The notes: a model not told the origin generated them from the sequence alone. A stretch of 64,000 nucleotides of DNA from a virus (IMGVR_UViG_3300043419_000731:56466-120465), one strand, 5' to 3'; positions 23,551 through 50,385 are shown, numbered from the stretch's first letter. Made by a program: numbers and translations.

Positions 23551-26433
23551 GTGCCATTTAAAATTTTTGACGGTTCATCGTGGCTTCCATCTAAAAAAAT
23601 TAAAGTCAATACCGAACTTGGTATGCAAGACTATAAAAAGGCATTTATATTTGACGGCACAAACTGGGTTGAAGTTTTAGAAAAACCAAAAAATCTTACT
23701 GTTCCAGAGCTTTCCTTTTCTAGAGGACAAGAGCTTTATGGTGCAGATCAAACTGTAACAGCTACTAACGGAACCTGGGAAGGAACCGTATCATCTTACA
23801 AGTATCAGTGGCAAAAAGGAATATACGCTGGCTCTCAGATAGATTGGTCTGATATCACAGATGCAATAAACAATAGCTTTATTATACCAGGAGATTTAGT
23901 AGGGTATAAATTAAGATGTGCTGTAACTGCAGTAAATAATGCAGGAGATAGCGAAAAGGCATACGGAACAACAATTGGAATCATCCTTCCTGAATTTGTT
24001 CAAACAATAACAGCCTTTGTGCAACAAGATGCAGACGGATATGTAAATGGAAAGATAAGAGTGTTCTGGGATGTTTCAGAAGGTGCAGACGGATATTTAT
24101 TGATTTATCAAGGTCCTGGAATTGCTAGAACAGAAAAGAAAATTATTGGTAAAAGTAATAACCTGTTTGACTGGGATTTTGGTGCAACAAACGTTAATGA
24201 TCTAATAGGAATGACAAGCTTATCGATATACGTTGGCCCATACAATGATACAAGCTCTGCTGCAGCAGCATATAGAGCGGCTAACGGAATTGGTGATAGC
24301 CAAACACCAACATTCTATCAATCTGGAGGAATCAATGACCTTCTTCCAAAAAAACCAATTGTAACCTCTTTAGCAGTTGCAATTACACCGTATGTTTATG
24401 ACACAGCAATTCAAATGAGCTGGTCACTAAGTAATATAACTCAATCATCATTTTCAGCGGAGTATCAGTATTTTAACGATGAAACCCTAGAATATGGATG
24501 GGCACCTTACAGATCTGGAACAACAGAGCAAAGCGTTTACATGCCTATTGGACCAGGATTTAGTTTTGATGGATTAAGAGTTGTAGTTTCGGGAACTTCT
24601 AGAGGATTTGCAGGACCATTCATTGGCGTTTCTAATTCACCAACTTCTGCATATCTTGCACCAGCAATTTATACAAAACCATTCTTAACCCCAAGCACTA
24701 ATGTTCAAGTGGGAGAAGTTATATCTGCTACCCAAGGAGTATGGGATTATAACCCAACATCATATACTTTAGATATATTAAAAAATGGAGTTTCAGTAGC
24801 ATCTGGAACACAAAGCTGTTCATACACAACAGTATTATCAGATGCTAATGCTACATTTACTGTTAAAGCAAGTGCTACAAATCCAGGTGGCACAACAGAG
24901 TCTTACGGAGACTATTCAATACAATGCCTTAACACATCCACCGTCCCCGCAAACGGTGTTGCTCAAATTTATGGAACTGGTAGAGTTGGAACACAAATTA
25001 CAATGAGCACAAGCGGCTGGACAGGAAATCCAACTCCTTCAATAACTACAAGCTTGCAGCGCATGAACTACTCTGGAGGCTATGATGACATGGGAGTTAC
25101 ATCCTATACTGTACAAGAATCAGATCTTTCAGTTGGTTCAAAAGGCGGAACAATCGCTGCAATTTTTAGAGCACGAGCAACAGCTAGCAATATAGCGGGA
25201 TCAACTTCTGCCTATTCAGATTATCTTCAAGTTTCAAGTAATACATTTACAGTTCCAAGCTTCTTAGGTGGAGGAGTTCCACAAGGTGCAAGTAACTATA
25301 CTATTACAAATGGTGGAGCGCTATATAAAACAACAGCTCTAAGCCAAGCGGGTACAGTAGCAGCTCAGTATCCAACAGCAGGAACAACTGCAACTATTGG
25401 TGTAGATATCACAGTTTATACTTATTATTATGAGGCCGCTGCAGTACTTGCTTCTGGTGGGGTAGCTTCTATTTCTGGAAGTGGTCAGGTTGGTTCAACT
25501 ATTACTGCATCTGCTAGCGGATGGTCTGGAAGCCCAACTCCAACCGTAACAACTCAATTACAGCGCATGAATTATGCTGGAGGGTATGATGATATGGGTG
25601 TAACATCATACACCGTACAATCATCTGATCTAAGCGTTGGAACTAAGGGTGGTGCAATTCCACAATACTTCAGAGCAATTTCAAGAGCAACTAACTCAGC
25701 AGGAACTGCAGAAGTTTACTCTGATTATGTACAAGCAAGCGCAGCACCAGTAACTCCATCATTCCCATTCTTCCCTGACTTTGTGGCGCCACCGTCATTC
25801 CCTTACTTCCCAGCATTTAAGGCACCTTCATTCCCATTCTTCCCTGATTTTGTTGCACCGCCTTCATTCCCTTATTTCCCAGAATTTATGAAAGCACCAT
25901 CATTTGTAGCGCCACCTTCATTCCCATTCTTCCCTGACTTTGTTGCTGCGCCTTCATTCCCTTATTTCAAAGTTACAAAATGTATTGAGTCAAATACAAG
26001 ACTATTAACTTTTGATAGAGGATATGTTGCAGCTAGAGACATACAGCTAGGAGACAAGTTAGTTTCAATATCTGCAGAAGATTTCGGAAACGAATCAATG
26101 AAGTGGTTTAACATTAAAGATAATGTTAAGCTTGTAGAAGTTGAAGTTGTTAAATCTGAGATGTCAGTTAAAGATGTGTTGTCATTTAACGGAACAGAAA
26201 AGTACTTCTCTTATGGTCAACCAATATTCATTAAAAAAGACGGGCTTGCAACATGGATAGAGTCAGGCTCAGTTAACATTGGAGATGCATTACTAGAACT
26301 TGATCCCGCCACTGGTGAGATAAATGAAGTTATAGTTGACTCAATACAAGCAGATACAGACAAAGAAGTTTATGACATTAGAACATCAGGCAACCAATGG
26401 TTTATTGCAGAACAATTTATTGTTATAAGTTAA
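23551..26433 (+). CDS. Ig-like repeat virion protein with PASTA-like segment, Pro/Phe repeat and C-terminal Hint domain
   Basis: Duplicated GW.G.PTP...QRMNY.GGYDDMG modules; PSFPFFPDF repeats 25756-25968; Hint from Cys at 25981. Confidence 0.75.
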   Translation: MPFKIFDGSSWLPSKKIKVNTELGMQDYKKAFIFDGTNWVEVLEKPKNLTVPELSFSRGQELYGADQTVTATNGTWEGTVSSYKYQWQKGIYAGSQIDWSDITDAINNSFIIPGDLVGYKLRCAVTAVNNAGDSEKAYGTTIGIILPEFVQTITAFVQQDADGYVNGKIRVFWDVSEGADGYLLIYQGPGIARTEKKIIGKSNNLFDWDFGATNVNDLIGMTSLSIYVGPYNDTSSAAAAYRAANGIGDSQTPTFYQSGGINDLLPKKPIVTSLAVAITPYVYDTAIQMSWSLSNITQSSFSAEYQYFNDETLEYGWAPYRSGTTEQSVYMPIGPGFSFDGLRVVVSGTSRGFAGPFIGVSNSPTSAYLAPAIYTKPFLTPSTNVQVGEVISATQGVWDYNPTSYTLDILKNGVSVASGTQSCSYTTVLSDANATFTVKASATNPGGTTESYGDYSIQCLNTSTVPANGVAQIYGTGRVGTQITMSTSGWTGNPTPSITTSLQRMNYSGGYDDMGVTSYTVQESDLSVGSKGGTIAAIFRARATASNIAGSTSAYSDYLQVSSNTFTVPSFLGGGVPQGASNYTITNGGALYKTTALSQAGTVAAQYPTAGTTATIGVDITVYTYYYEAAAVLASGGVASISGSGQVGSTITASASGWSGSPTPTVTTQLQRMNYAGGYDDMGVTSYTVQSSDLSVGTKGGAIPQYFRAISRATNSAGTAEVYSDYVQASAAPVTPSFPFFPDFVAPPSFPYFPAFKAPSFPFFPDFVAPPSFPYFPEFMKAPSFVAPPSFPFFPDFVAAPSFPYFKVTKCIESNTRLLTFDRGYVAARDIQLGDKLVSISAEDFGNESMKWFNIKDNVKLVEVEVVKSEMSVKDVLSFNGTEKYFSYGQPIFIKKDGLATWIESGSVNIGDALLELDPATGEINEVIVDSIQADTDKEVYDIRTSGNQWFIAEQFIVIS

Positions 26434-26479
26434 TAAATAATCCTGTATAATATATGAATAGGCAGTAAGAGGAGGAAAA

Positions 26480-27031: not shown

Positions 27032-27058
27032 AAAAAGCAACAAGAGGAGTCATAAAAT

Positions 27059-28723
27059 ATGGCAACAGTAGACAAAAACTTTAGAATTAAAAATGGCCTG
27101 GTCGTTGAAGGAGCTACAGCAACGGTCAATGGCAATGATATACTTACAAAAGATGCTGGTGATTCTTATATCATTAACCTTATTGGTGGAACAGCAACAT
27201 CTGCAAATACACCAAGCACAGTTGTAAAGCGTGATGCAAATGGTAATTTCGAGGCAGGCACACTAGCACTAACTGGAATTACAGTTCAAGATGCTGGTAG
27301 TATCTTTGAAGATTCTGGCCTTGTCATTCAGTCAAATAGCGGATATTCAATTGACATTCTTGGTAACCAGGATGTAACTATTTCATCTAGCAATGGAGAC
27401 ATTAACCTTAATCCAGATGGATCTGCTAAGGTCAATGGACAGGTAATTGCAACAAGAATTTATGCAGACGATGCCGCTTCAACAGCACAAGCAAATGCAG
27501 CTTCAGATGCTACAACAAAAGCTAACGCAGCACAGCTAGCAGCCGAAACAACAGCAGCACTAGATGCTACAAGCAAGGCTAATCAGGCTCTTTCAGATGC
27601 ACAGGCGTATGCACAAAATGCAGCAAATGCAGCACAGTCAAATGCAGAGTTCTTTGCAACATCTGCAGATTCAACACTATACGGAACAATTTCAGCTGAC
27701 ATCATAACTGCAATTGCTAATGAAGAAACAGCTCGTAATTCTGCTATTGATTCAGCAATAATGACAGAAGAGTCAGCTCGTAATTCTGCAATCAATACAG
27801 CAATTACAACAGAAGTTTCAGATAGAAACTCTGCAATTGCAACTGCAAAAAATCAAGCGATTGCAGATGCTAATTCTTACACAGATGGCAAGGTAGCAGA
27901 GCTTGTAGATTCAGCACCAGAACTTCTTGACACACTTAATGAGTTGGCTGCAGCTATTGCTGATAACCCAAATTATGCATCAGATGTTGCTAACCTAGTT
28001 GCAACAAAAGCTGACACAACATATGTAGACTCAGAAATTTCTGATCTAGATGCAGCAGCTCAGGGCTATGCCAATACAGCCCAGTCAAATGCTGAGGCAA
28101 CTGCATCAGCAGATGCAACAACTAAGGCTAACGCAGCTCAAGCAGCAGCTGAGGCAACTGCATCAGCAGATGCAACAACTAAGGCTAACGCAGCTCAAGC
28201 AGCAGCTGAGGCAACTGCATCAGCAGATGCAACAACTAAGGCTAACGCAGCATATGACAATGCTGTAGCCGCAGCAGCAACTGATGCTACAGATAAGGCT
28301 AATACAGCCCAGTCAAATGCTGAAGCAACTGCACAAACTGCGCTCAATTCAGTACTTGCGGGAGATACAAACTTCACAGAGGTTTCAATCGACTGGATGG
28401 TAAAGCATGTTGGATCATACGCATACCAGGCTGGAACTACCGAAACCGTAGCCTATAGCTGGAACCATAATGCAGGAGCTTCAGCTAAGTTCTTAGTTAG
28501 AATTAAGAATGGAATTCACTCACAGGTGTCTGAGGTTCTTTTGACTAGAGATGATGCAAATAATATTGCTATCACAGAATACGGCATGGTTACTACAAAC
28601 GGCATACTTGGAGACATTACAGCCGCTATGAATCAGAATAATATAGATCTTAAGGTAACCCCAGCACATAACACTGGAACAGAGATCTTTGTTTCTGGTA
28701 CACTTCTAAGATACGCAGATTAA
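27059..28723 (+). CDS. Ala-rich coiled-coil fibre protein
   Basis: MATVDKNF; DATTKANAAQ repeats; LDTLNELAA. Confidence 0.7.
   Translation: MATVDKNFRIKNGLVVEGATATVNGNDILTKDAGDSYIINLIGGTATSANTPSTVVKRDANGNFEAGTLALTGITVQDAGSIFEDSGLVIQSNSGYSIDILGNQDVTISSSNGDINLNPDGSAKVNGQVIATRIYADDAASTAQANAASDATTKANAAQLAAETTAALDATSKANQALSDAQAYAQNAANAAQSNAEFFATSADSTLYGTISADIITAIANEETARNSAIDSAIMTEESARNSAINTAITTEVSDRNSAIATAKNQAIADANSYTDGKVAELVDSAPELLDTLNELAAAIADNPNYASDVANLVATKADTTYVDSEISDLDAAAQGYANTAQSNAEATASADATTKANAAQAAAEATASADATTKANAAQAAAEATASADATTKANAAYDNAVAAAATDATDKANTAQSNAEATAQTALNSVLAGDTNFTEVSIDWMVKHVGSYAYQAGTTETVAYSWNHNAGASAKFLVRIKNGIHSQVSEVLLTRDDANNIAITEYGMVTTNGILGDITAAMNQNNIDLKVTPAHNTGTEIFVSGTLLRYAD
28091..28251 (+). 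repeat. perfect 57-bp tandem repeat x2.8 (19 aa)
   Basis: Units start at 28091, 28148, 28205. Confidence 0.9.
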
Positions 28724-28738
28724 TAATTAAATAAAAGG

Positions 28739-28766
28739 TTTGGGGTCCTTTCAAAACCCCACCAAA
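28739..28766 (+). terminator. imperfect hairpin after fibre gene
   Basis: TTTGGGGT...ACCCCACCAAA. Confidence 0.4.
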
Positions 28767-28791
28767 TAACATTAGGGGATAGTGAACTTAA

Positions 28792-29163
28792 ATGGCAACA
28801 GTAGATAAAAATTTTAGAGTAAAGAATGGTCTAAACGTAGCAGGTACTGCAAACTTTGATTCGGCAGTAAATGTAAATAACTTAGTCTTAAATTCGGCCC
28901 CCCTAGCTTATGACTCATCAACTGGTAGATTAAAAATCCAGATTGACGGGGCATGGAAAGAGGTTGCATTCTTAACAGATGCAGCTGAAGATCTAGGAGC
29001 ATTAACCTTCATGGATATCGGCTTGGCTATCGATTATGATGGGCAGCCAGTATATACAGTTTTTGCAAATGGAGTAAACACAACAGCTACAAAATTTGCA
29101 GATGGTGGAATTTACTCCACAGATGTTTACAGCATGACTTTTGACTCTGGAACAATTAATTAA
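28792..29163 (+). CDS. small virion protein sharing N-terminus with 27059-28723
   Basis: MATVDKNFRVKNGL vs MATVDKNFRIKNGL. Confidence 0.65.
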   Translation: MATVDKNFRVKNGLNVAGTANFDSAVNVNNLVLNSAPLAYDSSTGRLKIQIDGAWKEVAFLTDAAEDLGALTFMDIGLAIDYDGQPVYTVFANGVNTTATKFADGGIYSTDVYSMTFDSGTIN

Positions 29164-29224
29164 TTGTTTTAGAGCCTTTGTGATGCTATAATTACCAAAT
29201 AAGTCTAAATAAGGGGTGGCATAA

Positions 29225-31609
29225 ATGTCAACAGTAAGAATTCAAGTAAGAAGAGGCACAGCTTCACAGTGGACCTCAGTAAATCCAATTTTGGCAGCAG
29301 GAGAAATGGGTGTCGAGTCAGACACAAACCTATTTAAATTCGGTAACGGAACTTCTACATGGACTGCCCTTGCATATGCAAATAATTCAGACGTAGCAAT
29401 CGCTGAAATATCACAGGATGCAATTAATACCGCTCTCTCAATGGGCTCAGGTTTAACAAAGTCATACAATGATGGCACAAATACAATTCAGATCACAGTT
29501 GATTCAGATGTTGTTGCCCTAAAGTCATATGTAGACTCAGCAATTTCAAATGTCGAGGCATCAGTAACAGGCCTTGCAAATACAGTTGATTCAGACTATA
29601 TTCCAGTATCTGACCGTGGTGTCGCTGGTGGAGTTGCATCACTCGATAACAGTGGTTTAATTCCAAACTCACAGATCGATGACACAAATTGGGCAACAAA
29701 GCTACACGTAGCCTCAGTTTCTTCTGGGCTTCAGATTAAGGGTTCAGTACGTGTAACATCTACAGATAACTTTGCTGCAACACTAACAGATGGAACAACA
29801 GATGCATCAGGCGGAAATGGTGTAGGACAATACTTAACAGCATCAGCTAATGGAGCACTTGTAATTGATGGTGTAACACTAAATGCAGGAGACAGAGTTC
29901 TTCTTAAGGATCAGTCTGACGGCAAGCAAAATGGTATTTACACAGTAACAAATACAGGTGGATCTTCAGCAGCAGCAGTTTTAACTCGTGCTACAGATGC
30001 AGATAACAGCGTAGACGGAGAAGTCAGAGAAGGCCTCTTCGCATTTACTCAAGAAGGAACTGCAAATGCTCGTGACGGATACGTTCTTCTAGCAGCAGCA
30101 TCAAGATCAGGACAGATTTTCCAGCTTGGCACAGACTCACTAACATTTAGCCAATTTACTGGAGCAATCCCAGTAAATATTTCTACAGGCCTACAGAAGA
30201 CTGGCGATACAATTTCAGTAAATACATCTGAAATTGCAACAGTTAACTATGTAGACGGAATTAATAATGCTCTAACTCAAATAACAACATCACATGGAGA
30301 ACAAATTGATGCTGTTGAGATTAAGAATAATGAGCAGGATTCAGCAATAGCTATTAATACAGCAGATATTGCAACAAATACAGCAAGTATTAGCTCAATC
30401 GTAACTGTAAATAATACACAGAATACCAGACTAACATCACTAGAAGCAGCTGATGTAACTCTTGGAGGCTTGCTAGACGATGCTAATACAGCAATTGCAG
30501 ACCTAGAGACAGAGCTCAGAGGAGACCTTGCTCCAAAGAACAATGCTGAATTTACAGGTACTCTTGACTTGCCATCAACAACAACAATAGGCACAGTCCT
30601 TGGAACAGAGATTGCACATCTATCAGGTGTGACATCTGGAATCCAGACACAGATTGATTCAAAAGCATCAAATACAGATCTTTCAGATCACGCAGCCGAC
30701 ACATTATCGGTTCACGGTATTTCAGATACATCAGAACTTGAGACACAGACTGGCGCACAAGCAAAAGCAGATAACGGCAGAGATGCAGCAAAAGCTTATG
30801 CAGATAGCCTTGCATCAAACTATGACGCAGCTGGAGCAGCAACATCAGCAGTTGGCACACACAACAATGCCACAACATCTGTTCATGGAATTGCTGATAC
30901 ATCAAAGCTTGTAACAACAGATGCACAGTCCATAACATTAGATGGAGCATTAACAGTTGAGGGCAACCTTACTGTAAACGGTACAACATTTAACGCATCA
31001 GCAACATCTATTACAATTGAAGATAATCTAGTACAACTTGCACATCAAAATGCAGGTAATACAGTAGATCTTGGAATCGTAGTCGCTTACAATGATGGAT
31101 CTGCAAAGCATGCAGGTTTTGTAAGAGACGTATCTGATAATGAGTGGAAGCTCTTTAAGGGCGTAACAGATGAACCAGCAACAACTGTTAACTTCAGCCA
31201 GGGGTCACTAGATAATCTTGAGCTAAATAACTTAGTTGCAGCAGGCGTAGTCTTTACAGATGGAACACAGACAAAGCAGGGTGTACCTTCTATAACTCCT
31301 ATCGTAGAAAAAACAGCAGGCTTCAATATTTCAGATGCTGATTATAGAGATCAGATGCTTGAGGTCAGCCACACAGGTGGAAGCGCTGTAACAATAACAG
31401 TAACTGCAGATGGAACAAACGGTATCACATACCCAGTTGGAACATCTATCAGCATAACAAGAACTAATACAGGATCTGTAACAGTAGCAGGTTCTGGAAC
31501 AACAGTTAATGCTACACCAGGATTAACTTTAAGAGCACGATGGTCATCAGCGACATTATTCAAGAGAGCAGCTAACACCTGGATCTTGATGGGCGATTTG
31601 ACAGCGTAA
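29225..31609 (+). CDS. long fibre protein with Mtd-N-like N-terminus
   Basis: RRGTASQW...GEMGVESDT; GDRVLLKDQ...QNGIY domain; ITIEDN module. Confidence 0.7.
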   Translation: MSTVRIQVRRGTASQWTSVNPILAAGEMGVESDTNLFKFGNGTSTWTALAYANNSDVAIAEISQDAINTALSMGSGLTKSYNDGTNTIQITVDSDVVALKSYVDSAISNVEASVTGLANTVDSDYIPVSDRGVAGGVASLDNSGLIPNSQIDDTNWATKLHVASVSSGLQIKGSVRVTSTDNFAATLTDGTTDASGGNGVGQYLTASANGALVIDGVTLNAGDRVLLKDQSDGKQNGIYTVTNTGGSSAAAVLTRATDADNSVDGEVREGLFAFTQEGTANARDGYVLLAAASRSGQIFQLGTDSLTFSQFTGAIPVNISTGLQKTGDTISVNTSEIATVNYVDGINNALTQITTSHGEQIDAVEIKNNEQDSAIAINTADIATNTASISSIVTVNNTQNTRLTSLEAADVTLGGLLDDANTAIADLETELRGDLAPKNNAEFTGTLDLPSTTTIGTVLGTEIAHLSGVTSGIQTQIDSKASNTDLSDHAADTLSVHGISDTSELETQTGAQAKADNGRDAAKAYADSLASNYDAAGAATSAVGTHNNATTSVHGIADTSKLVTTDAQSITLDGALTVEGNLTVNGTTFNASATSITIEDNLVQLAHQNAGNTVDLGIVVAYNDGSAKHAGFVRDVSDNEWKLFKGVTDEPATTVNFSQGSLDNLELNNLVAAGVVFTDGTQTKQGVPSITPIVEKTAGFNISDADYRDQMLEVSHTGGSAVTITVTADGTNGITYPVGTSISITRTNTGSVTVAGSGTTVNATPGLTLRARWSSATLFKRAANTWILMGDLTA

Positions 31610-31638: not shown

Positions 31639-32946
31639 ATGTCAAACAAAAAAGTAGGAATTAAATCTTCCGCCCAAGACAACTTCTTAGAGCCAAGTGC
31701 TGTAACGTCTTTATCAGCAACTGCTGTAAATGGCGGAAATAATGGAAATGGTACTGTTAACTTAACATGGTCACTTCCAGCCGCATCACCGCCAGCAACA
31801 CTTTACACAGTAACATCAAATCCAGCTACAACTACACAAACATCAGCTAGCACATCAATAACATTTAATGGGCTTACTGGAGGAACATCTTATACGTTTA
31901 CAGTAGTAGCTTCAAATGCAGCAGGAAATAGCTTGCCAACTAGCACCACATCTGGTGTTACACCAACTACACTTCCTAATGCGCCCTCAGCTCCAATAGC
32001 TTCTTCGCCAAATGCTAACCAGGACGTTATATCCTGGTCAGCACCATCTTCTAATGGTGGATCAACAATTACAGGATATAGATTAAAGTCCTCAGATGGT
32101 CCAACATATGATTATGATGCTAATACAACATCAGCAACAATTAGCGAATCAGCTGGAACAGCACAGACATATCAGGTTTTGGCAAAGAACTCGAATGGAG
32201 ATGGTCCGTACTCAGTATCAAGTAATACTATTACGACAACTGCTCCATTCTTCCCATTCTTCCCGCCATACTTCCCTTACTTCCCACCTTACTTCCCATA
32301 CTTCCCACCTTACTTCCCATTCTTCCCGTTCTTCCCACCGTTCTTCCCACCGTTCTTCCCGTTCTTCCCACCGTTCTTCCCACCGTTCTTCCCGTTCTTC
32401 CCACCGTTCTTCCCACCGTTCTTCCCATTCTTCCCACCGTTCTTCCCACCATACTTTGCAGCACCATCGTTCCCTTACTTTAAGGTAACAAAGTGTATTG
32501 CAGGAGATTCTGAAGTACTTACAACATCAGGATACAAGCCAGCAAAGGAATTAAATGTAGGAGATAAACTTCTTACAGTTGATCCAAAAGACTTCAATAA
32601 TGGTGAAATAACATCAGAGCTAAGTTTGCCAGACAAGGTATTCCTCTCTGAAACATCAATCGCCACTATCGAGTTGAGCCAAAAGGCACTGCTAAGCTTC
32701 AATGACTCACTGATTAAATTCTCAGACGCACAACCAATATTTGTGAAAGACGGAGAGTTTATTAAGTACAAGACAACTGGAGAAGTAGCTGTAGGAGATA
32801 TCCTTGCAGAAGTAAATCCAGAAACATGCCAGGTAACATACACAACAGTAGAAAAGATTACTGAGCATGAAGCAGGAGATGTCTACGATATCCGATGCTT
32901 ACCGAACCAGTGGTTCATCGTAGGAAATTATATAGTAATCTCCTAA
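31639..32946 (+). CDS. two fibronectin-III-like domains, 71-residue P/F/Y tract and C-terminal Hint domain
   Basis: LTGGTSYTFTVVASNAAG, WSAPSSNGGS; P/F/Y only at 32245-32457; Hint from Cys at 32494. Confidence 0.8.
   Translation: MSNKKVGIKSSAQDNFLEPSAVTSLSATAVNGGNNGNGTVNLTWSLPAASPPATLYTVTSNPATTTQTSASTSITFNGLTGGTSYTFTVVASNAAGNSLPTSTTSGVTPTTLPNAPSAPIASSPNANQDVISWSAPSSNGGSTITGYRLKSSDGPTYDYDANTTSATISESAGTAQTYQVLAKNSNGDGPYSVSSNTITTTAPFFPFFPPYFPYFPPYFPYFPPYFPFFPFFPPFFPPFFPFFPPFFPPFFPFFPPFFPPFFPFFPPFFPPYFAAPSFPYFKVTKCIAGDSEVLTTSGYKPAKELNVGDKLLTVDPKDFNNGEITSELSLPDKVFLSETSIATIELSQKALLSFNDSLIKFSDAQPIFVKDGEFIKYKTTGEVAVGDILAEVNPETCQVTYTTVEKITEHEAGDVYDIRCLPNQWFIVGNYIVIS
32329..32451 (+). repeat. 33-bp tandem repeat x3.7 encoding FFPPFFPPFFP
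   Basis: Units start at 32329, 32362, 32395, 32428. Confidence 0.85.
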
Positions 32947-32959
32947 AGTAATTAAACAT

Positions 32960-32992
32960 AATCAGGAGGGGTAGCACTTACCCCTCCTGATT
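32960..32992 (+). terminator. intrinsic terminator
   Basis: Perfect 14-bp stem followed by ATTTT. Confidence 0.75.
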
Positions 32993-33052
32993 ATTTTATA
33001 TAAAAAGCTTGTCTCCTGAATAATAAAATGCTATACTAAACAAGGAGGCAAA

Positions 33053-33805
33053 ATGAGTATTCAAGATACATGGTTTGATAAAGATAGATCTGAGACTTCT
33101 TCAAATAGAAGACCAGACAAAACATTTAATGGCATCACTGTTAAGAATGAGGCCCTAGGCTTAGATGTATACAAAAATGTATTTACATCTAGTCAGATTC
33201 AGAAATACATTAATGCGCTAGAAAATAATTTAAAGCCAGACACAGAGTTCTTCTGGAATGAAGCAAGAGTTACAAACTCTGAAACACCAATTAAAAAAGC
33301 AAGAGATTGCGTAGACTTTAAGATGAACTACGCCTCACTTGGCGGAGCACAGAATCAAAAGAATGCTGAGCTTTGGGAAACATATGATGAGATCTACAAA
33401 GCCCTAAAATCATGCGTGGACGACTATTGCAGGTACTGGGGAATCAATGTTACATACTATGAGGTTTTTAACTTTGTAAAGTATGAAGGCGAAGGCAAAG
33501 AGTTTAAGATTCATGCTGATGATGGACCAGCATACAAAGCAGCCGTATCTGCAGTTATTTATTTAAACAATGACTATGAAGGCGGAGAGATAGCTTTCCC
33601 AAGAATGGATAATTTGGTAATTAAGCCAGACCTTGGGGATATTGCAATATTCCCATCAAACTATATTTACGAGCATGCTTCACTTCCCATTAGATCTGGA
33701 ACAAAGTATTGCGTAGTTATTATGATGGACTTAAATGATTTAGCTCATCAAAATAATAGAATGCAAGGAAGCCCTTCTGCATTCGGAAAAGAATCAGGAT
33801 ATTAA
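33053..33805 (+). CDS. 2OG-Fe(II) oxygenase, P4H-like (1 of 7)
   Basis: HAD...YLNNDYEGGE...FPS...HAS...GTKY. Confidence 0.87.
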   Translation: MSIQDTWFDKDRSETSSNRRPDKTFNGITVKNEALGLDVYKNVFTSSQIQKYINALENNLKPDTEFFWNEARVTNSETPIKKARDCVDFKMNYASLGGAQNQKNAELWETYDEIYKALKSCVDDYCRYWGINVTYYEVFNFVKYEGEGKEFKIHADDGPAYKAAVSAVIYLNNDYEGGEIAFPRMDNLVIKPDLGDIAIFPSNYIYEHASLPIRSGTKYCVVIMMDLNDLAHQNNRMQGSPSAFGKESGY

Positions 33806-33806
33806 T

Positions 33807-34502
33807 ATGCAAGCAGAAACTAAAGAAATTGATTTTAAAGCTGAATGGGCAGAGCCAATCAAGCAGACCTGGACAGAAAAGATTGATCTAGGTTCTGGCA
33901 TTTGGCTATACAAGAATGTTATCCCAACAGATATCCCAGCTAGACTGGAAGAACTATTAGCAGACCCATCTAACCCGTATAACTGGATGGAAGCTTTTGT
34001 GGGGTACCAACAGAGTATGCCAGAGTATAGAGACTGTGTTGACTTTAAGTATAAGAAGACAGATATTAATGACCCAAGCGAAGCTGGACAAAAGCTAGTA
34101 AAGATTTGGGAGGAGTGCTATGAGCCACAAAGACAGGCTGTAAGAGATTACTCTAGAATGTATAATATTAATCAGCTTAGATACTGGGAAGCATTCAACT
34201 TTATTAGATATACACCAGGAAATCACTTTATGGAGCACCACGATCATGGATACTCATATAACTGCACAGTTTCACTTGTAGGATATTTTAATGATGACTA
34301 CGAAGGTGGAGAGCTATACTTTAGACTTCAGAACTTAAATCTAAAGCCAGAAGCTGGAGATCTTTTTATCTTCCCTTCAACATATATGTATCCACACCAA
34401 GCCAAAAAGGTGCACTCAGGAACAAAGTACTCAATTGTAACAATGCTTGATTACAGCGAGAAGTTCCATGATCCAAAGTTTTTCCAAGAGACTGGAAACT
34501 AA
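33807..34502 (+). CDS. 2OG-Fe(II) oxygenase, P4H-like (2 of 7)
   Basis: HHD...NDDYEGGE...FPS...HQA...GTKY. Confidence 0.87.
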   Translation: MQAETKEIDFKAEWAEPIKQTWTEKIDLGSGIWLYKNVIPTDIPARLEELLADPSNPYNWMEAFVGYQQSMPEYRDCVDFKYKKTDINDPSEAGQKLVKIWEECYEPQRQAVRDYSRMYNINQLRYWEAFNFIRYTPGNHFMEHHDHGYSYNCTVSLVGYFNDDYEGGELYFRLQNLNLKPEAGDLFIFPSTYMYPHQAKKVHSGTKYSIVTMLDYSEKFHDPKFFQETGN

Positions 34503-35218
34503 TGATTAACCTTACAGCCTATCAGATGGGCACAGAAACTGCATCGGTTGAGCCTTTGCAAGTAACTAGAGACTGGATGGATGCAACACCAGAAAAGCAT
34601 GCATACCATTGTTTTCCAGTAACTCAAGCCAATACTGTAGGCTGGACAATCTCTATGCCAGTAGATATTAAATTTATTTGGGATGGAGTAAATGATACAA
34701 GCGGGAATCATATAGAGATACTAGAGGGCAATAGCTTTGTTTATACAGGAAGAGGTCAGTCTTCTGTAAGCTTTAATACAAACCTATTGTTTAGATCAGA
34801 AAGCAATGTTAGCTTATTAACAATGACACCACCTAACTATTTTAATCCAGATTATCAAGTTATTGGTTCTGTTATATCTACATCATTTTTTAGAAACCCT
34901 CTACCGCTTGCAATTAAAGCATTGACTCCAAATAAAGAAATTTTAATACCTGCAGGAACACCAATTGCAACAATATTGCCAATATCTTTATCTGAACTCA
35001 AAGACTCTGTTGTAGAGGTTAAAAAGTTTCCTCAAGAAGATATGTATGAGTGGAATGAAAAGAATAGAGCCTATGGAGATGCAGCTCAAGTCTTATCCAC
35101 AAAGGGCGAGTGGACTGATTGGTATAGAGATGCTGTTGATCAAGACGGCAACAAGATTGGTGAACACGAAGCTAAATCACTTAAGCTTAAAACAGTATAC
35201 GTAGATACAGAGGTATAA
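34502..35218 (+). CDS. DUF6065-like protein
   Basis: HAYHCFPVTQANTVGW; GTPIATILP. Confidence 0.6.
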   Translation: MINLTAYQMGTETASVEPLQVTRDWMDATPEKHAYHCFPVTQANTVGWTISMPVDIKFIWDGVNDTSGNHIEILEGNSFVYTGRGQSSVSFNTNLLFRSESNVSLLTMTPPNYFNPDYQVIGSVISTSFFRNPLPLAIKALTPNKEILIPAGTPIATILPISLSELKDSVVEVKKFPQEDMYEWNEKNRAYGDAAQVLSTKGEWTDWYRDAVDQDGNKIGEHEAKSLKLKTVYVDTEV

Positions 35219-35950
35219 ATGTCTAACACCATTAAGTTTGTCAGTAATAGACCATGGCTAACAAAAGATAGCTCTTCAAAGCCAGAACCTATCATAAAGT
35301 CTATTCCAGATTGGTATAGAAAAGCTGACAGATTTGCTAAAAAACCAGATGGAGAATATTGGCAAGATCCTACAATTGGGGGAAAGATTCCTACATGGAA
35401 AGCTTGTCCAGCAATATTTGACATTATGGGAACAGGATATACGCTAAGAACTCCGTGTGATATTGAATTTATAAAGGGTGACTTCGGATCAATTGATTTT
35501 AAAATCTCTGATCCAAAGTATAAAGATTTTTGTACCAAAAGAGAACCTATGCCACAATTTCATCAGCCAGAGGGATACTATGCAATTCACTTTGCTTGGT
35601 TCCCAGATTGGGCTATAGAGACTCCAGAAGGATACAGTGTTCTTTACTCACAGCCTTTCAATAGATTTGAGTTGCCATTCCTAACTACATCTGGAATCAT
35701 TGATAATGATAAGGTAAACTTGCCAGGGTCAATGCCTTTCTTTTTGCAAAAAGGTTTTAGTGGAATTCTTCCAGCAGGAACTCCTTACGCACAGATGCTT
35801 CCATTTAAAAGAGAAGACTGGGAGCATGAGATTGTTATAGAAAAAGCTTCAAAGCTACAAAGTAAAAATATGGAAAACTCAGCAAAATATAGAAAGCCAG
35901 ACGGCGGAATATACAAAAACGAAGTATGGTCTAAGAGAACATACTCATGA
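35219..35950 (+). CDS. DUF6065-related protein (dUTPase-like beta fold suspected)
   Basis: PDWYRK, KACPAIFD...GY, SGIIDND, GTPYAQMLPFKRE. Confidence 0.55.
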   Translation: MSNTIKFVSNRPWLTKDSSSKPEPIIKSIPDWYRKADRFAKKPDGEYWQDPTIGGKIPTWKACPAIFDIMGTGYTLRTPCDIEFIKGDFGSIDFKISDPKYKDFCTKREPMPQFHQPEGYYAIHFAWFPDWAIETPEGYSVLYSQPFNRFELPFLTTSGIIDNDKVNLPGSMPFFLQKGFSGILPAGTPYAQMLPFKREDWEHEIVIEKASKLQSKNMENSAKYRKPDGGIYKNEVWSKRTYS

Positions 35951-35968
35951 GGATGGTATAATTAAATT

Positions 35969-36643
35969 ATGGAAGATAAAACATTAGCTAACGGTCCTGC
36001 AAACTGGGACAATCGTACTTCAATAACTCCTCCAGGATTCTTTGGTAATACTCCAGAGCATATCCAGGCAAGAGAAAATTTTATGACTGAAGAAGAAAGA
36101 ACCTTTTTATTAGAAGCAGCAAAGTCTATTACGGAGTGGGATAGAACAGAAACACACTACAATGATGATGGAGTAATTATCTATGACTCAACATATTGGG
36201 ATAACCGTGTTGCTTCAAGACCGATCCTGGACTCTATAAATCCAGAGATATCAAATGTTATCGAAAAGCTCGTAGCTAGACTTAAAGTTGAAGTTGATAA
36301 TCACTTTAAGGTAGACGCTATGCCAACAAGCCCAGCTATTGTTAGATGGATGGAAGGATATAGACAAGAGCCACATGCAGACAAGCAATTGCAGAATGGC
36401 GAGCCTAATGATTTCCCATGGTATGACCTAGCTGGTCTATTTTACTTAAATGATGATTATGAGGGTGGAGAGCTTTACTTCATGCATCACGATATTGAAT
36501 TTAAGCCAAAGCCAGGAGCAGCATACTTCTTCCCAGGAGATGTTGGGTATAGCCATGGTGTAAGAGAAATAAAGAGCGGTATTAGATATGTTATTCCGTT
36601 CTTCTGGACTATTATGAAGCATACAGGAGATAAGCAGCCTTGA
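35969..36643 (+). CDS. 2OG-Fe(II) oxygenase, P4H-like (3 of 7), leaderless
   Basis: HAD...YLNDDYEGGE...HGV...GIRY. Confidence 0.87.
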   Translation: MEDKTLANGPANWDNRTSITPPGFFGNTPEHIQARENFMTEEERTFLLEAAKSITEWDRTETHYNDDGVIIYDSTYWDNRVASRPILDSINPEISNVIEKLVARLKVEVDNHFKVDAMPTSPAIVRWMEGYRQEPHADKQLQNGEPNDFPWYDLAGLFYLNDDYEGGELYFMHHDIEFKPKPGAAYFFPGDVGYSHGVREIKSGIRYVIPFFWTIMKHTGDKQP

Positions 36644-37380
36644 GTAAACAATGCACATGTGGAAGATCTCAGTCTTATCCTTTTTGCGATAACACTCACG
36701 CTCAGCCATCACATCCAGTAATTCAAACAATCAATCCTCATGCATTTAGCTACTTTAATAAAAAGGATTCTGCGGAGAATGTTGTTGTTCAAGTTCCCAA
36801 GTTTATCTCTAAGGGTATGTCAAAAGACCTAATTGATGTTTTTGAAAAGGATGAGCTGTGGCAGGATGTTGGATTCCACAAGGCAAGTAATTTATTTCAT
36901 ATAGATTTTGCAGGCAATAAAGAACTTGCTGATCTGTGGGAAGAGCTTGTTTCAACTATTAAAAGGGCTACAGAAATAGTATTTAAAGACAAGGTTGTAA
37001 ACACTGGCTTATATATTCAAAAATGGCCAGAAGGATCGTATGGAATAAAACATAATGATATGTACAATTTTGATGGAAGCATCGGCAATTTAACATCCAG
37101 AATAGCAACAACCTTATTCTTGCACTCACCTTTTACTGGAGGGAATTTAGAGTTCCCAGATCATGAGCTAGCTATTGAGCCTAAGATGGGGTCACTGTAT
37201 TTGTTCAAAGGTGGACCAGACAACGAACATCAAATTGCAGAAATAACATCTGGATTAAGATATACAGTTATTGCATTTTGGGATTTTGAAAGCTCAACCT
37301 ATACCGATGAAGAATTACAGGGTATGGAAGATAGCAAGAAGAAGTGGGAAAATTATATGAAGACAGGTGAGGGGCTATGA
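36640..37380 (+). CDS. CDGSH iron-sulfur motif fused to 2OG-Fe(II) oxygenase (4 of 7)
   Basis: CTCGRSQSYPFCDNTH; HND...GGNLEF...HQI...GLRY; TTG start. Confidence 0.78.
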   Translation: MSKQCTCGRSQSYPFCDNTHAQPSHPVIQTINPHAFSYFNKKDSAENVVVQVPKFISKGMSKDLIDVFEKDELWQDVGFHKASNLFHIDFAGNKELADLWEELVSTIKRATEIVFKDKVVNTGLYIQKWPEGSYGIKHNDMYNFDGSIGNLTSRIATTLFLHSPFTGGNLEFPDHELAIEPKMGSLYLFKGGPDNEHQIAEITSGLRYTVIAFWDFESSTYTDEELQGMEDSKKKWENYMKTGEGL

Positions 37381-38174
37381 CAAAAGACTTAGAGTTTATT
37401 ACGATATATCCTAGAATAAATGTTTATAGAAATACATTTAAAGATGTAGAAAAATTTTTAGAGCAAGCAAAGTCAGAAGAGGGATGGATTCAGTGGTATA
37501 CCTTTGGACAAATGCTGCCTCTCCAAGAAGCGCCTCTTGATTTTGACCATTTCCCAACAAAAGAAGAGTATATTAAGCTAAGAGATTCACAGCCATCTTC
37601 TCAAAAGAATTTAACAGATGAGATAGGTGAAATATTCTACGACGTAACAAAGCATTGGTTAGACATGAATCCAGATATGGGATTAATTAATTACCATAAG
37701 GGATCAGCATCAATTAATATCTATAAGAATGAAGCTGGGTTATCAGAAAACTACTCTATGAATTATCATACAGATTTTGTTGTACCTCTTAGAGATGCAC
37801 CAGGAACCAAGTTTGGCATTACAACAACATTTTATTTGAATGACGATTATGAAGATGGAGAGATCTGTTTTAAGATTGGAGATCATTTTATATCTCACAA
37901 GCCTAAAGCAGGAGATGTTATTGTATTCCCATCAAGAGACCCATACTACCATGCAGTAAGAAAGTCTTCTGGTAACAATAGATATATGATCAGATCATTC
38001 TGGGAGTACAACTTCCCTGGTACCGATGAGTGGCTTGCTGGACAAGCAGAGCACGGTGAAGAAAAATGGGCTGAGATGGAAAAGATCAGGTTTAAAAAAG
38101 AGATAGAAGGCACACAGCAGCAAGCTGAAGATGTTCACGAATTCTTTGGGAGAGACAACGGTAAATACTTATGA
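37377..38174 (+). CDS. 2OG-Fe(II) oxygenase, P4H-like (5 of 7)
   Basis: HTD...YLNDDYEDGE...FPS...HAV...NRY. Confidence 0.85.
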   Translation: MTKDLEFITIYPRINVYRNTFKDVEKFLEQAKSEEGWIQWYTFGQMLPLQEAPLDFDHFPTKEEYIKLRDSQPSSQKNLTDEIGEIFYDVTKHWLDMNPDMGLINYHKGSASINIYKNEAGLSENYSMNYHTDFVVPLRDAPGTKFGITTTFYLNDDYEDGEICFKIGDHFISHKPKAGDVIVFPSRDPYYHAVRKSSGNNRYMIRSFWEYNFPGTDEWLAGQAEHGEEKWAEMEKIRFKKEIEGTQQQAEDVHEFFGRDNGKYL

Positions 38175-38935
38175 AAAATGGAATGATTGATGTAATAGAT
38201 CCTGATAAGTTTATTATTTTACAGGATGAGGTTGTACCAGAAGAAAAAGCTGGGGTGCTAGGCGTTTATACAAATAAGATAGTTGAGATCCCAAACTTTA
38301 TTGACCCAGAAGTTGTTCCAAAGATGATTAACTTTTTTGAAAATTGCGACGTAGACTGGGGAGATATTGCATTTTATGGATCTTCAGGCAAAGGTATTTT
38401 AACTGATGCCACCACAATGGAAAAGTTTGGATTGCCAGATGGATTCTTTGATAAACTAAAAGACAAGTATCAGGAAGCAGTTACAACTGTATTTGGCAGA
38501 GAGGTAAGAGCAAATACTTCTCATGCACAGAAATGGGATGTGGGAGGATTTGCATCACCACACTCAGACAATTCAAATAATGAAGGAAAACCAAATGCAT
38601 TTGAGATTAATAAATACGTAGGCATTTTATATCTAAATGATGATTATGAAGGTGGAAATCTTTATTTCTGTGACAAAGATAAAGAGATGGAGCCATATCT
38701 ATCATTTAAGCCAAATGCATACTCTTACTATGTTTTCCCAGGAGGATATGAAAATATTCATGGAGTTGCTGAGATCACAGCTGGAACGAGATATACAATG
38801 GTTTCATTCTGGGACTTTGCAGATTTAGAATATGACGAAGAGACTCTAGAGCGCTGGAAAGAAGAAGAGCGCCAGGTTAGAGTTGAGCAGGCCGCACAGA
38901 AAGAAGAGTGGGAAAAGGGTAACAAGTATGCCTAA
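38171..38935 (+). CDS. 2OG-Fe(II) oxygenase, P4H-like (6 of 7)
   Basis: HSD...YLNDDYEGG...HGV...GTRY. Confidence 0.87.
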   Translation: MKNGMIDVIDPDKFIILQDEVVPEEKAGVLGVYTNKIVEIPNFIDPEVVPKMINFFENCDVDWGDIAFYGSSGKGILTDATTMEKFGLPDGFFDKLKDKYQEAVTTVFGREVRANTSHAQKWDVGGFASPHSDNSNNEGKPNAFEINKYVGILYLNDDYEGGNLYFCDKDKEMEPYLSFKPNAYSYYVFPGGYENIHGVAEITAGTRYTMVSFWDFADLEYDEETLERWKEEERQVRVEQAAQKEEWEKGNKYA

Positions 38936-39524
38936 CCTTGAAAAGTTTGGCAAGATTCATTATTACAAAAATGTAATTGCTGATCCCGCATCTTTAATAG
39001 ATTTAATTGAAACATTAGACGAAGAGTTAACAGACGATACATCTATCCCAAAATGGCAAGAGTGGTCAGCAAGTGGAGATATCCCATATGTATTTGGATA
39101 TCAAAAAAGATTTAAGGATGGCGTAGATACTGACGATAATCCCAAAATACGTGAGATAAACAATATTTTAAAAGAAGCAATAATAGAATCATCAAATGAC
39201 TATGCCAACATTTATCAGGCAGAGCTAGGCATGCTTATGCCAATATCTGTTAGCAAATATTCTACAACAAAATCCATGGGGCCACATGTAGATGATTATG
39301 GAAATGAAGATAATCCAAACATTTCAGTTGTTCTTTATCTTAACGATGATTATGAAGGCGGAGAGCTTTACTTTAAAGATCAGGATGTAAAGATAAAGCC
39401 AGAGGCTGGGAGTATAGTAATTTTCCCATCTATTGAGCCTTATTATCACGAATCCCTACCAGTTGTTTCTGGCACAAAGTATATGTGTCCAGGATTCTGG
39501 CGTAAAACTAACAAGGTGGTATAA
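38928..39524 (+). CDS. 2OG-Fe(II) oxygenase, P4H-like (7 of 7)
   Basis: HVD...YLNDDYEGGE...HES...GTKY; start MPNLEK. Confidence 0.87.
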   Translation: MPNLEKFGKIHYYKNVIADPASLIDLIETLDEELTDDTSIPKWQEWSASGDIPYVFGYQKRFKDGVDTDDNPKIREINNILKEAIIESSNDYANIYQAELGMLMPISVSKYSTTKSMGPHVDDYGNEDNPNISVVLYLNDDYEGGELYFKDQDVKIKPEAGSIVIFPSIEPYYHESLPVVSGTKYMCPGFWRKTNKVV

Positions 39525-39531
39525 TTAAAAA

Positions 39532-40749
39532 ATGAGTACAACAGGTAAAGGCTTTCATTATCCAGTCTACACAGACACTCCAGACGTCCCTAGAGACCTA
39601 GAGCAGCTAGCAAGAGACGTAGACGCATATCTTGATGCCCATCCAGGCCCACAAGGTGAACAGGGTCCTGCAGCAACAGTAGCAGTTGGAACTGTTGAGG
39701 TTTTGCCACCAGGATCAACGCCAGAGGTTATTAATGTTGGAAACTCAAATGATGCAGTATTTAACTTTAAGATTCCCAGAGGAGTAGATGGGGTTCTTGG
39801 AGGACCTGGACCTGCGAATGAACTTTCTATAAATCCTACAATTACAGGAGAAGCTGGTACGCAGGCAAGCGTTGTTATATCGGGAACTGCTCCATCACAA
39901 ACTTTAACATTTACAATTCCAAAAGGCGACAAAGGTGAGACTGGCGCAAAAGGAGACAAAGGAGATACTGGAGAGCAAGGTCCAGCTGCCGCAACAATAT
40001 CTGTATCACCAACAACTGTAACAGGAGCCCCTGGAACAAATGCATCCGTTACAAATTCTGGCACATCAAGTGCTGTTGTTTTAAACTTTACAATTCCTAG
40101 AGGCGCAACAGGAGCAACAGGAGCAGCTGGCGCAGATGGCGCTCAAGGTCCTGCAGGAGCAGATGGTGTAACACCATCACTTGATCCTTTAACTCAAGTA
40201 ATAAGCTTAAACGTTCCAAATGGTGCAGGAGACGGAGTTAACTCACATTGGTACCCATTAGCATCTGGATCCTATTCTTTAGGAAAAGATGCTACAAGCG
40301 GTACAGCAAGATACTGGAGAGATGTTTTTGCAACAGGAACAGTTAGAGCCGCATCTGTCATCGCATCTGGAAATATGTATATCAATACATCAACTATTGT
40401 AACTTCAGATCAAAATTTAAAAAACAATATTAACACTTCTGACTTAGGTCTTGATTTTATTAATTCATTAAATCCAGTAAGCTATAAGTATAATGTTGGC
40501 GGGATAGACTATGTTCTTAACAATGATGGAACACATACAGAAGTTGAAGTCCCTGGAACTAGAACACACTACGGCTTAATTGCACAAGAAGTAAAGCAAG
40601 CACTAGATGAAGCTGGAGTAGAAGATTTTGGCGGATGGGTACAGCAAGAAGATAATACTCAGGCATTAAGATATGAAGAGTTTATATCTCCACTAATTAA
40701 AGCGGTACAAGAACTTACAGCGAGAGTTAAAGCACTAGAAGAGGCGTAA
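39532..40749 (+). CDS. collagen-like tail fibre with C-terminal peptidase S74 chaperone
   Basis: Gly-X-Y runs; SDQNLKNNI, GLIAQEV, YEEFISPLIKAVQEL. Confidence 0.82.
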   Translation: MSTTGKGFHYPVYTDTPDVPRDLEQLARDVDAYLDAHPGPQGEQGPAATVAVGTVEVLPPGSTPEVINVGNSNDAVFNFKIPRGVDGVLGGPGPANELSINPTITGEAGTQASVVISGTAPSQTLTFTIPKGDKGETGAKGDKGDTGEQGPAAATISVSPTTVTGAPGTNASVTNSGTSSAVVLNFTIPRGATGATGAAGADGAQGPAGADGVTPSLDPLTQVISLNVPNGAGDGVNSHWYPLASGSYSLGKDATSGTARYWRDVFATGTVRAASVIASGNMYINTSTIVTSDQNLKNNINTSDLGLDFINSLNPVSYKYNVGGIDYVLNNDGTHTEVEVPGTRTHYGLIAQEVKQALDEAGVEDFGGWVQQEDNTQALRYEEFISPLIKAVQELTARVKALEEA

Positions 40750-50263: not shown

Positions 50264-50264
50264 G

Positions 50265-50293
50265 TTGCTTTTGGGGCAATTATACACTAAAAT
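50265..50293 (+). promoter_or_regulatory. SigA-type promoter for the tail tube gene
   Basis: TTGCTT-N17-TAAAAT. Confidence 0.55.
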
Positions 50294-50385
50294 TAGCTAA
50301 GAGGAAAAAAGCCTAGCCAGCTTTTGATTTAGATTTACAGTAAGTTAATATATATATATATTTATTTAACAGGAGGTTTTACAAA

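Follow-up and report, generated by a model that had tools for sequence, protein, structure and literature searches.

The virus record IMGVR_UViG_3300043419_000731 in IMG/VR is a complete genome of 120,465 bp with a G+C content of about 40%. Its right half (56466-120465; 64,000 nucleotides), here called the window, was analysed, and positions are counted from its first letter unless the source genome is named. Between 31639 and 40749 the window carries a gene module that begins with a protein built around a long tract of Pro, Phe and Tyr and continues behind a hairpin with nine tightly packed genes, seven for 2-oxoglutarate (2OG)-Fe(II) oxygenases of family PF13640 and two for DUF6065/phrog_7084 proteins; a collagen-like fibre gene comes next (Table 1). 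The module is embedded in a fibre-gene block that immediately precedes the portal gene, and it stands apart from the block for ribonucleotide reductase and nucleotide metabolism. We describe here its genes and the conserved linkage between the repeat protein and the oxygenase array, and we propose that the module may serve the maturation of virion appendages.

The first protein of the module carries two fibronectin type III (FN3) domains (Pfam PF00041, 53 bits), which in an AlphaFold model based on 28 homologues reach a predicted local distance difference test score (pLDDT) above 90 and match FN3 tandems at Z of about 15. The tract that follows is uninterrupted and consists of 31 Pro, 34 Phe and 6 Tyr and nothing else, arranged as PFF and PPFF units with 11 Pro-Pro motifs; its DNA is made of 12-, 21- and 33-bp tandem repeats, and it is predicted to have no regular structure (pLDDT 35-52). 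The C-terminal domain is again confidently modelled. By sequence it is only a weak Hint match (Pfam, 18 bits), but the fold of residues 283-435 matches the NpuDnaB intein at Z 17.5 (rmsd, the root mean square deviation, 2.0; 134 aligned), the Hedgehog autoprocessing domain 1at0 at Z 17.2 and the bacterial intein-like (BIL) domain 2lwy at Z 16.0, with matches covering 130-134 residues. Because these fold matches reach Z 16-17.5, the Hint assignment is secure despite the weak Pfam score. The architecture proposed by the initial annotation, two FN3 domains, a 71-residue tract and a Hint domain at 31639-32946, is thus upheld by Pfam, structure model, composition and fold.

The putative Hint nucleophile, Cys286, stands directly behind the sequence KVTK, and relatives have Cys or Ser at this place. 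In Hint domains the block-B Thr-x-x-His drives the N-S acyl shift; both copies in the window read S-x-x-Q-P-I-F there, with Gln for His, and both end in IVIS followed by the stop codon, lacking the terminal Asn of inteins. Several relatives keep a block-B E-H-P and end in H-N-K; His-Asn plus one or two residues closes the domain in several of them. A terminal Asn is not required for N-terminal cleavage of the Hedgehog type. Given the Gln in block B and the missing terminal Asn, self-cleavage of the window copies is not assured, and for the copy at 31639-32946 we regard it as plausible. The second copy ends a 960-aa protein with a different body, in which PSFP[FY]F units (residues 733-806) lead into the same KVTK-Cys junction and a 150-aa Hint domain (25981-26430). 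These are the only two Pro/aromatic-rich open reading frames (ORFs) of the whole genome, and both bear the same C-terminal cassette. Among relatives the end of the tract is modular: it may be a Hint domain, a tail of about 20-45 residues with 4-10 Cys, often preceded by a (Val-Gly)n spacer, or just a few residues. At four loci (L022, L026, L027 and L031) the tract gives way to a spacer of (Val-Gly)6-9, elastin-like in character, behind which a short tail holds six to eight Cys in a pattern of the C-x-x-x-Y-C-W-x-C-P-C type; this tail may be a knot registering or cross-linking chains.

Of 14 relatives in which the spacer is short, 10 have a similarly strong hairpin behind the repeat gene. The seven oxygenases downstream score 29.2-54 bits against PF13640 (gathering cut-off 27) and were confirmed on the genome. 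Although they are mutually only 21-33% identical, the iron triad H154, D156 and H208 is invariant in all of them and the Lys or Arg of SGT[KR]Y is present; the triad and basic columns are also invariant in 40 orthologues of oxygenase 2. A terminator followed by nine packed genes, seven with an intact HxD...H...R/K motif, had been read from the DNA alone, and each element was recovered by hairpin, profile and triad analysis. The CDGSH-like motif of oxygenase 4 (36640-36710; PF09360, 27.2 bits, under the cut-off of 29.5) may provide an extra metal site and appears peculiar to this lineage. Oxygenase 7 has an in-frame Met codon about 45 nucleotides inward, and a start there would give a smaller overlap with the preceding gene.

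Compared with the PDB, the oxygenase 2 profile matched, with modest scores throughout, the Bacillus anthracis prolyl 4-hydroxylase (P4H) at E 4e-5 and then the lysyl hydroxylase LH3, the procollagen lysyl hydroxylase/glycosyltransferase entry 6ax6 and PKHD-type PiuC. Oxygenase 7 matched 3dkq (PKHD-type), 4iw3 (PPHD) and 3itq and, more weakly, the enzyme 5c5t of Chlorella virus PBCV-1. The resemblance is to protein hydroxylases, not to AlkB or TET/JBP, and the P4H-type assignment made initially is confirmed by the B. anthracis P4H, LH3 and PiuC matches. The cassette enzymes belong to phrog_61, a family of multi-copy cyanophage oxygenases. Their likeness places them with the collagen-type protein hydroxylases, and activity on peptidyl Pro is predicted.

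Table 1. Features of the module and of its surroundings, in window coordinates
Feature	Position	Strand	Evidence or remark
FN3-FN3-(Pro/Phe/Tyr)71-Hint protein, 435 aa, proposed substrate	31639..32946	+	
71-residue Pro/Phe/Tyr tract, residues 203-273	32245..32457	+	composition count, structure model
Hint domain, residues 286-435, first residue Cys286 (32494)	32494..32943	+	fold, alignment, Pfam
Terminator-like hairpin, 17-bp stem, 7 G-C pairs, T-rich tail	32958..32994	+	between substrate and enzyme genes
Oxygenase 1, 250 aa, core member	33053..33805	+	PF13640, 44.6 bits
Oxygenase 2, 231 aa, core member	33807..34502	+	PF13640, 50.6 bits
DUF6065 paralogue a, 238 aa	34502..35218	+	PF19541, 107.6 bits
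DUF6065 paralogue b, 243 aa	35219..35950	+	phrog_7084, 110 bits
Oxygenase 3, 224 aa, core member	35969..36643	+	PF13640, iron triad
Oxygenase 4, 246 aa, N-terminal CDGSH-like Cys/His motif	36640..37380	+	PF13640, 29.2 bits
Oxygenase 5, 265 aa, variable distal member	37377..38174	+	PF13640, iron triad
Oxygenase 6, 254 aa, variable distal member	38171..38935	+	PF13640, iron triad
Oxygenase 7, 213 aa from TTG start	38883..39524	+	PF13640, 54 bits; PDB matches
Collagen-like/S74-chaperone fibre, 405 aa	39532..40749	+	S74 domain, 54 bits
Second virion-type protein, 960 aa, with degenerate Pro/Phe repeat and Hint domain	23551..26433	+	translation, composition
Mtd_N-type fibre protein, 794 aa	29225..31609	+	Pfam PF18454, 48.7 bits
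LamG/ConA-like protein, 603 aa	40753..42564	+	last of fibre block before portal gene

Both DUF6065 paralogues match phrog_7084, and paralogue b is without a Pfam match. Its model (pLDDT 90.8) is a beta-barrel whose top 22 structural matches all belong to the dUTPase/dCTP deaminase superfamily or are viral proteins of the same fold (Z 9.3 to 5.3); the best, at Z 9.3, aligns 129 of 143 residues. A Foldseek comparison gives E 1e-3. As modelled, DUF6065 has a dUTPase-like fold, an assignment that is new here. Even with E values up to 1 allowed, the canonical dUTPase profile PF00692 matches nothing in the genome, the DUF6065 proteins included, and it is absent from complete genomes with the cassette as well as from those without; as the cassette-free relatives also do without a canonical dUTPase, DUF6065 does not fill that role. 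More than 1,300 clusters of paralogue b relatives exist in public metagenomes; ESM Atlas and the cluster names returned only "hypothetical protein". Among cultured viruses DUF6065 is confined to haloarchaeal tailed viruses.

Related loci were collected from IMG/VR by the repeat protein (75), by DNA patterns for FFPPFFPFFP, for the Pro-poor unit VFGFSPF and for (FFxPPx)3 (more than 120 each), and by a profile of oxygenase 2 (80); the exact (FFAPP)2 DNA pattern had no match, and it was the looser (FFxPPx)3 that found loci. In total the FN3-repeat plus oxygenase architecture recurs in several hundred contigs and is therefore not due to chance. For the repeat side, only distinct FN3 orthologues whose downstream DNA extends over at least 7 kb were counted. 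All 56 orthologues with PFF/PPFF units are followed by 3-10 oxygenase genes (mode 6-7), with exactly two DUF6065 genes in 52, and all 15 with FFxPPx units by 5-8 oxygenases and 2-3 DUF6065 genes. Taken together, 71 of 71 Pro-rich orthologues have the cassette (3-10 oxygenases), 65 of them with exactly two DUF6065 genes. By contrast, the 13 orthologues with (VFGFSPF)n, a repeat with one Pro in eight and no Pro-Pro, all lack it and have only one distant oxygenase each. At one annotated Pro-poor locus (L007) that oxygenase adjoins the ribonucleotide reductase gene; two ORFs behind the repeat gene there were considered as DUF6065 candidates and rejected.

Counted from the enzyme side, the linkage is nearly as tight. 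Among 49 loci chosen by the oxygenase 2 profile only, with at least 3.5 kb of upstream DNA, 45 have a Pro/Phe/Tyr run upstream on the same strand, at a median distance of 2.1 kb. The four exceptions comprise two with a Pro-His-Phe variant of the repeat, a third whose repeat gene stands farther upstream, at about 7 kb, and a fourth that reaches the end of its contig, so that three of the four fit the linkage. Variant units, all Pro-rich, include (PPHF)n directly followed by the cassette (L337:6197-7513 and L373:8323-9135) and the Cys-containing PVFCPFFPP (L167:2934-4295). The adjacency of Pro/Phe-repeat genes and P4H clusters, suggested at first from this single locus, is in this way confirmed from both directions. 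Gene order is also fixed: oxygenases 1, 2 and 3 occur in this order, at 50% identity or more, in 47 of 47 complete cassettes, with the two DUF6065 genes interleaved, while the three to four distal positions vary by lineage. A correspondence between Tyr content and particular oxygenase groups was considered and rejected, the differences following lineage.

On a tree of 84 FN3 sequences, the cassette persists through four to six replacements between PFF/PPFF and FFxPPx units. Five complete Pro-poor-type genomes contain no orthologue of oxygenase 2, the best match having 33-43% identity over the catalytic core only. In addition, a miniature module is present in a phage of 205 kb (97% complete) that has no homologue of the present portal. 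It comprises the genes of an Mtd_N fibre and of a 135-aa protein consisting of hardly anything but (FFxPPx)7 and a Cys-rich tail, together with genes like those of oxygenase 2, oxygenase 3 and DUF6065. At a distance of about 16 kb, another Mtd_N fibre gene precedes a second small repeat gene, and a further oxygenase gene follows 2 kb downstream. Deep ancestry and transfer as a block would both account for this recurrence; in either case it argues for joint action of fibre, repeat protein, oxygenases and DUF6065. A search of cellular genomes with the PF pattern returned only short contigs of lake metagenome-assembled genomes and single, probably chance, sites, and no host or cellular version of the module was found. 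On the strength of the repeat-side and enzyme-side counts, the fixed gene order, the unit switches and the 205-kb phage, we hold with high confidence that the linkage between Pro/Phe-repeat protein and oxygenase array is real.

What the linkage means is less certain. With slightly better than even confidence, we favour the proposal that the hydroxylase battery modifies the Pro/Phe tract of virion appendages. As repeat and enzymes always travel together, the polymer is the likeliest substrate. Within it, Pro is the evident target, since the enzymes are of the P4H type and the cassette disappears along with the Pro residues. Six or seven conserved enzymes with 21-33% identity suggest that several different positions or residues are modified. 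The module would then act in appendage maturation. The abundant structural gene at 31639-32946 would supply a folded FN3-FN3 body bearing an extremely hydrophobic, extended Pro/Phe tract, and the genes behind the leaky terminator would provide a fixed battery of 2OG-Fe(II) protein hydroxylases, three universal and three to four lineage-variable, accompanied by the two dUTPase-fold DUF6065 proteins. In the infected cell the battery would hydroxylate the tract, chiefly at Pro and possibly at aromatic side chains, so that a polymer otherwise insoluble would become a hydroxylated rod of polyproline-II type on the virion, much like an extensin or a mussel foot protein. The same would happen to the 960-aa fibre protein, which shares the C-terminal cassette. 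The end of the tract would be capped or processed by the Hint domain or, in relatives that have it instead, by the Cys-rich knot. The anatomy of the module, the enzyme family with its intact catalytic residues, the folds and the conserved linkage are established here, whereas the tract as substrate, the residues modified, the role of DUF6065 and any cleavage by this Hint copy are inferred.

Several observations weigh against this proposal. Repeat length (17-173 residues) does not follow enzyme number (Spearman rho 0.05, p 0.72, n=49), and the two longest tracts (156 and 135 residues) in the complete-cassette set have the fewest enzymes; the expectation that length would track enzyme count has accordingly been dropped, the array being a fixed cassette. 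The change from Pro-rich to Pro-poor repeat, with loss of the cassette, occurred only once or twice on the FN3 tree, so that shared ancestry could explain the contrast; the association, perfect as it is, is phylogenetically clustered and yields no meaningful p-value. Three further P4H-like genes lie elsewhere in the source genome, outside the window (30847-31515, 46145-46789 and 49877-50590 of the source genome), and the family evidently has other targets too. The first of the three closes a stretch (26267-31515 of the source genome) that also holds two paralogous ORFs of about 310 aa and a carbamoyltransferase. Dispersed PF13640 genes number 3-6 in each Pro-poor-type genome, against 7-13 in five Pro-rich-type genomes, and the enzyme family is therefore not exclusively tied to the repeat. 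Relatives with a Pro-poor repeat keep the DUF6065 pair and two oxygenases elsewhere, which means that the pair does not need the tract. In haloviruses DUF6065 adjoins thymidylate synthase and DNA polymerase genes, a context that agrees with its nucleotide-enzyme fold. Finally, in the one cyanophage region examined, no Pro-rich ORF was found within 12 kb of the oxygenase gene (Synechococcus phage S-BM1, L317; record 135733-136314).

Part of this evidence would also fit enzymes that modify other proteins, such as phage fibre or capsid proteins or host translation factors, with adjacency to the repeat gene being no more than inherited gene order. The small number of independent Pro-rich/Pro-poor transitions and the dispersed genes in this genome and in repeat-poor relatives are what such a history would leave; in the Pro-poor genomes the DUF6065 pair and two oxygenases stand near a different Pro-rich, membrane-anchored protein, and the PPHD entry 4iw3 is among the best PDB matches. 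The Pseudomonas PPHD reportedly acts on EF-Tu. Inherited order accounts poorly, however, for a two-way linkage that extends over several hundred contigs and survives four to six changes of repeat unit, for the recurrence of the module in a phage of different backbone, and for the loss of the cassette orthologues exactly where the repeat lost its Pro. We therefore judge a general protein target to be improbable, while giving it appreciable weight.

That the module acts instead on nucleotides, DNA or a small metabolite, with DUF6065 as a divergent dUTPase or dCTP-deaminase-like enzyme and the oxygenases tailoring a base or sugar, appears distinctly unlikely. The fold of paralogue b (Z 9.3), the halovirus gene neighbourhood and the lack of a canonical dUTPase in this genome would suit it, as would the TylF-type methyltransferases of some lineages, enzymes typical of sugar tailoring. 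Yet the closest solved structures to the oxygenases are of protein hydroxylases and neither of AlkB nor of TET/JBP, the module sits in the fibre block away from ribonucleotide reductase, relatives without the cassette lack a canonical dUTPase just the same, and DUF6065 is not matched by PF00692. For DUF6065 itself, fold and halovirus context point to nucleotides, yet in fibre modules it is strictly paired with P4H-like genes, even in the Pro-poor-type genomes, which suggests that it works with the oxygenases. Least probable of all, and very unlikely in our estimate, is that the enzymes act on host ribosomes or elongation factors and thereby permit translation of the Pro-Pro motifs in the repeat: some 2OG oxygenases do hydroxylate ribosomal proteins or elongation factors, EF-P is required for poly-Pro translation, and the presence of the enzymes only where the repeat has Pro-Pro would explain their restriction to Pro-rich repeats, but six to seven conserved enzymes and two DUF6065 proteins exceed the needs of such a task, Pfam and PHROG scans of the module turned up no EF-P modification family, and the module travels with small repeat genes in the unrelated 205-kb phage.

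Other candidate tailoring enzymes accompany the module in places. In some lineages a TylF O-methyltransferase or a Sulfotransfer_2 gene is inserted between the repeat gene and oxygenase 1; both act on hydroxyl groups, which is a hint of further tailoring. Hydroxyproline as a handle for glycosylation, as first envisaged, finds no support, the genome having yielded no glycosyltransferase of families GT1/GT2 (PF00534, PF00535). Complete Pro-poor-type genomes (L523:5785-16926, also L521, L522 and L524) hold a reduced module of two DUF6065 genes, a 286-aa ORF with a borderline match to PF11397 (Skp1-hydroxyproline GlcNAc-transferase; 20.3 bits, cut-off 21), two oxygenases and a NodU-type carbamoyltransferase; the L523 carbamoyltransferase is 78% identical to the one in the source genome stretch mentioned above. 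At a distance of 3-4 kb from the reduced module there is a PA14 protein that is rich in Pro (PT/PE/PPV repeat) and ends in a hydrophobic anchor. Many PFF-type loci (e.g. L043:11055-11489) have, between repeat gene and oxygenase 1, a conserved protein of about 145 aa without a Pfam match, with motifs W-[ND]-G-[ST]-S-F-S-G-G and W-D-G-[ST]; it is missing from the present window. A larger idea, which we put forward only tentatively and think rather doubtful, is that these genes form a complete new phage protein-tailoring pathway, in which specialised hydroxylases for Pro and aromatic residues, a DUF6065 transferase and finishing O-methyl-, sulfo- or carbamoyltransferases would produce an adhesive or rod-like appendage. 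The DUF6065 pair would then be a new protein-modifying or nucleotide-dependent transferase acting on the new hydroxyls, and the pathway would explain the orphan 2OG oxygenases of aquatic phages, cyanophages included.

The nearest precedent for the proposed tract modification is PBCV-1. Like the present phage, it combines an oxygenase of the P4H family with candidate Pro-rich repeat substrates; the phage differs in being a bacteriophage, in encoding not one enzyme but a fixed cassette of seven that is accompanied by two dUTPase-fold proteins, and in a directly adjacent substrate gene whose Pro/Phe tract is Hint-capped. The PBCV-1 repeat unit is said to be Pro-Ala-Pro-Lys. Extensins, collagen and mussel foot proteins are likewise repetitive Pro-rich tracts made functional by P4H-family enzymes, and in mussel proteins hydroxylation affects aromatic residues as well as Pro. 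The phage tract departs from extensin and collagen in having neither Ser-Pro4 nor Gly-X-Y, with Phe making up about half of it, no GT1/GT2 enzyme in the genome, and a modification that is predicted. PBCV-1 is reported to encode a prolyl 4-hydroxylase for which the Pro-rich repeats of the virus itself are substrates (Eriksson et al. 1999, J Biol Chem 274:22131, as cited in PMC7019647). According to an entry in the reference list of the same article (PMC7019647), no hydroxyproline was detected in PBCV-1 particles, so that the model case is not settled either.

The Hint domain resembles Hedgehog-type (Hog) and BIL domains in its position behind the functional part of the protein and in its leading nucleophilic Cys; it differs from them in the block-B Gln and IVIS end of the window copies and in being interchangeable with Cys-rich tails or short ends in relatives. 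Loci for ribosomally synthesised and post-translationally modified peptides, which the initial annotation had also invoked, share with this one only the layout of gene, hairpin and enzymes: instead of a short leader-core precursor there is a 435-aa protein in which the tract stays on a folded FN3 body of about 200 residues. Among cultured phages the closest enzymes are the multi-copy 2OG-Fe(II) oxygenases of marine T4-like cyanophages, for which only DNA repair or 2OG balance has been suggested (Sullivan et al. 2010, PMC3037559). These too belong to phrog_61, have 30-36% identity to ours in the catalytic core and occur in several copies per genome, but they are not arranged as an ox1-ox2-DUF-DUF-ox3 cassette, and DUF6065 had no match in cultured cyanophage records. 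The S-BM1 oxygenase gene also lies among fibre and structural genes, one of them for a "sericin-like" Ser-rich protein. Literature searches on DUF6065, phage hydroxyproline and Hint-capped phage fibres found no description of the module.

The carrier of the module is an uncultured, siphovirus-like lake phage of about 120 kb. The window encodes a portal, a prohead protease, an HK97-type capsid and a 2,735-aa tape measure, and its portal shares 57% identity with the counterparts in Streptomyces siphophages of about 127 kb. Megablast with the region as query found nothing, and neither did a tblastn search of cultured phage records with the repeat protein. The Mtd_N-type fibre gene is the conserved 5' neighbour of the repeat gene, with a homologue upstream in most related loci, and the LamG/ConA-like protein has homologues placed after the cassette in some relatives. 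The collagen-like fibre had been put forward as a second flanking substrate. It is indeed the next gene and has an S74 domain, but it contains three short Gly-X-Y runs totalling 19 triplets with a single Pro in the Y position, its Pfam Collagen score (22.6 bits) is below the cut-off of 27.2, and it stands behind the array in the closest relatives only. With one Y-position Pro and an adjacency limited to its nearest relatives, it is a poor and non-conserved substrate candidate.

Further features of the window include a 644-aa ORF with signatures of class II ribonucleotide reductase directly before the fibre block (17155-19089), genes for tRNA-Asp (3646-3720) and tRNA-Ile with anticodon TAT (11654-11729), a weak JmjC/cupin-like ORF (10258-10770) and two TylF-type O-methyltransferase genes on the minus strand (12308-12844 and 14850-15488). 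The latter flank two ORFs of 291 and 281 aa, for which Pfam did not confirm an oxygenase identity. The stretch 10258-15488 may be a second tailoring island.

Among the so-called auxiliary metabolic genes that aquatic phages carry, multi-copy 2OG-Fe(II) oxygenases rank with the commonest, and what they do has been open since at least 2010 (PMC3037559). The module described here offers them a concrete, adjacent and conserved candidate substrate and so makes the question testable. Three of its features are unusual in themselves: the Pro/Phe polymer, the exchangeability of Hint and Cys-knot caps, and the partners with a dUTPase fold. If the proposed modification of the tract is true, these oxygenase genes would decorate the virus particle instead of reprogramming host metabolism, and the hydroxyproline-type structural chemistry of collagen, extensins and mussel glue would extend to bacteriophages.

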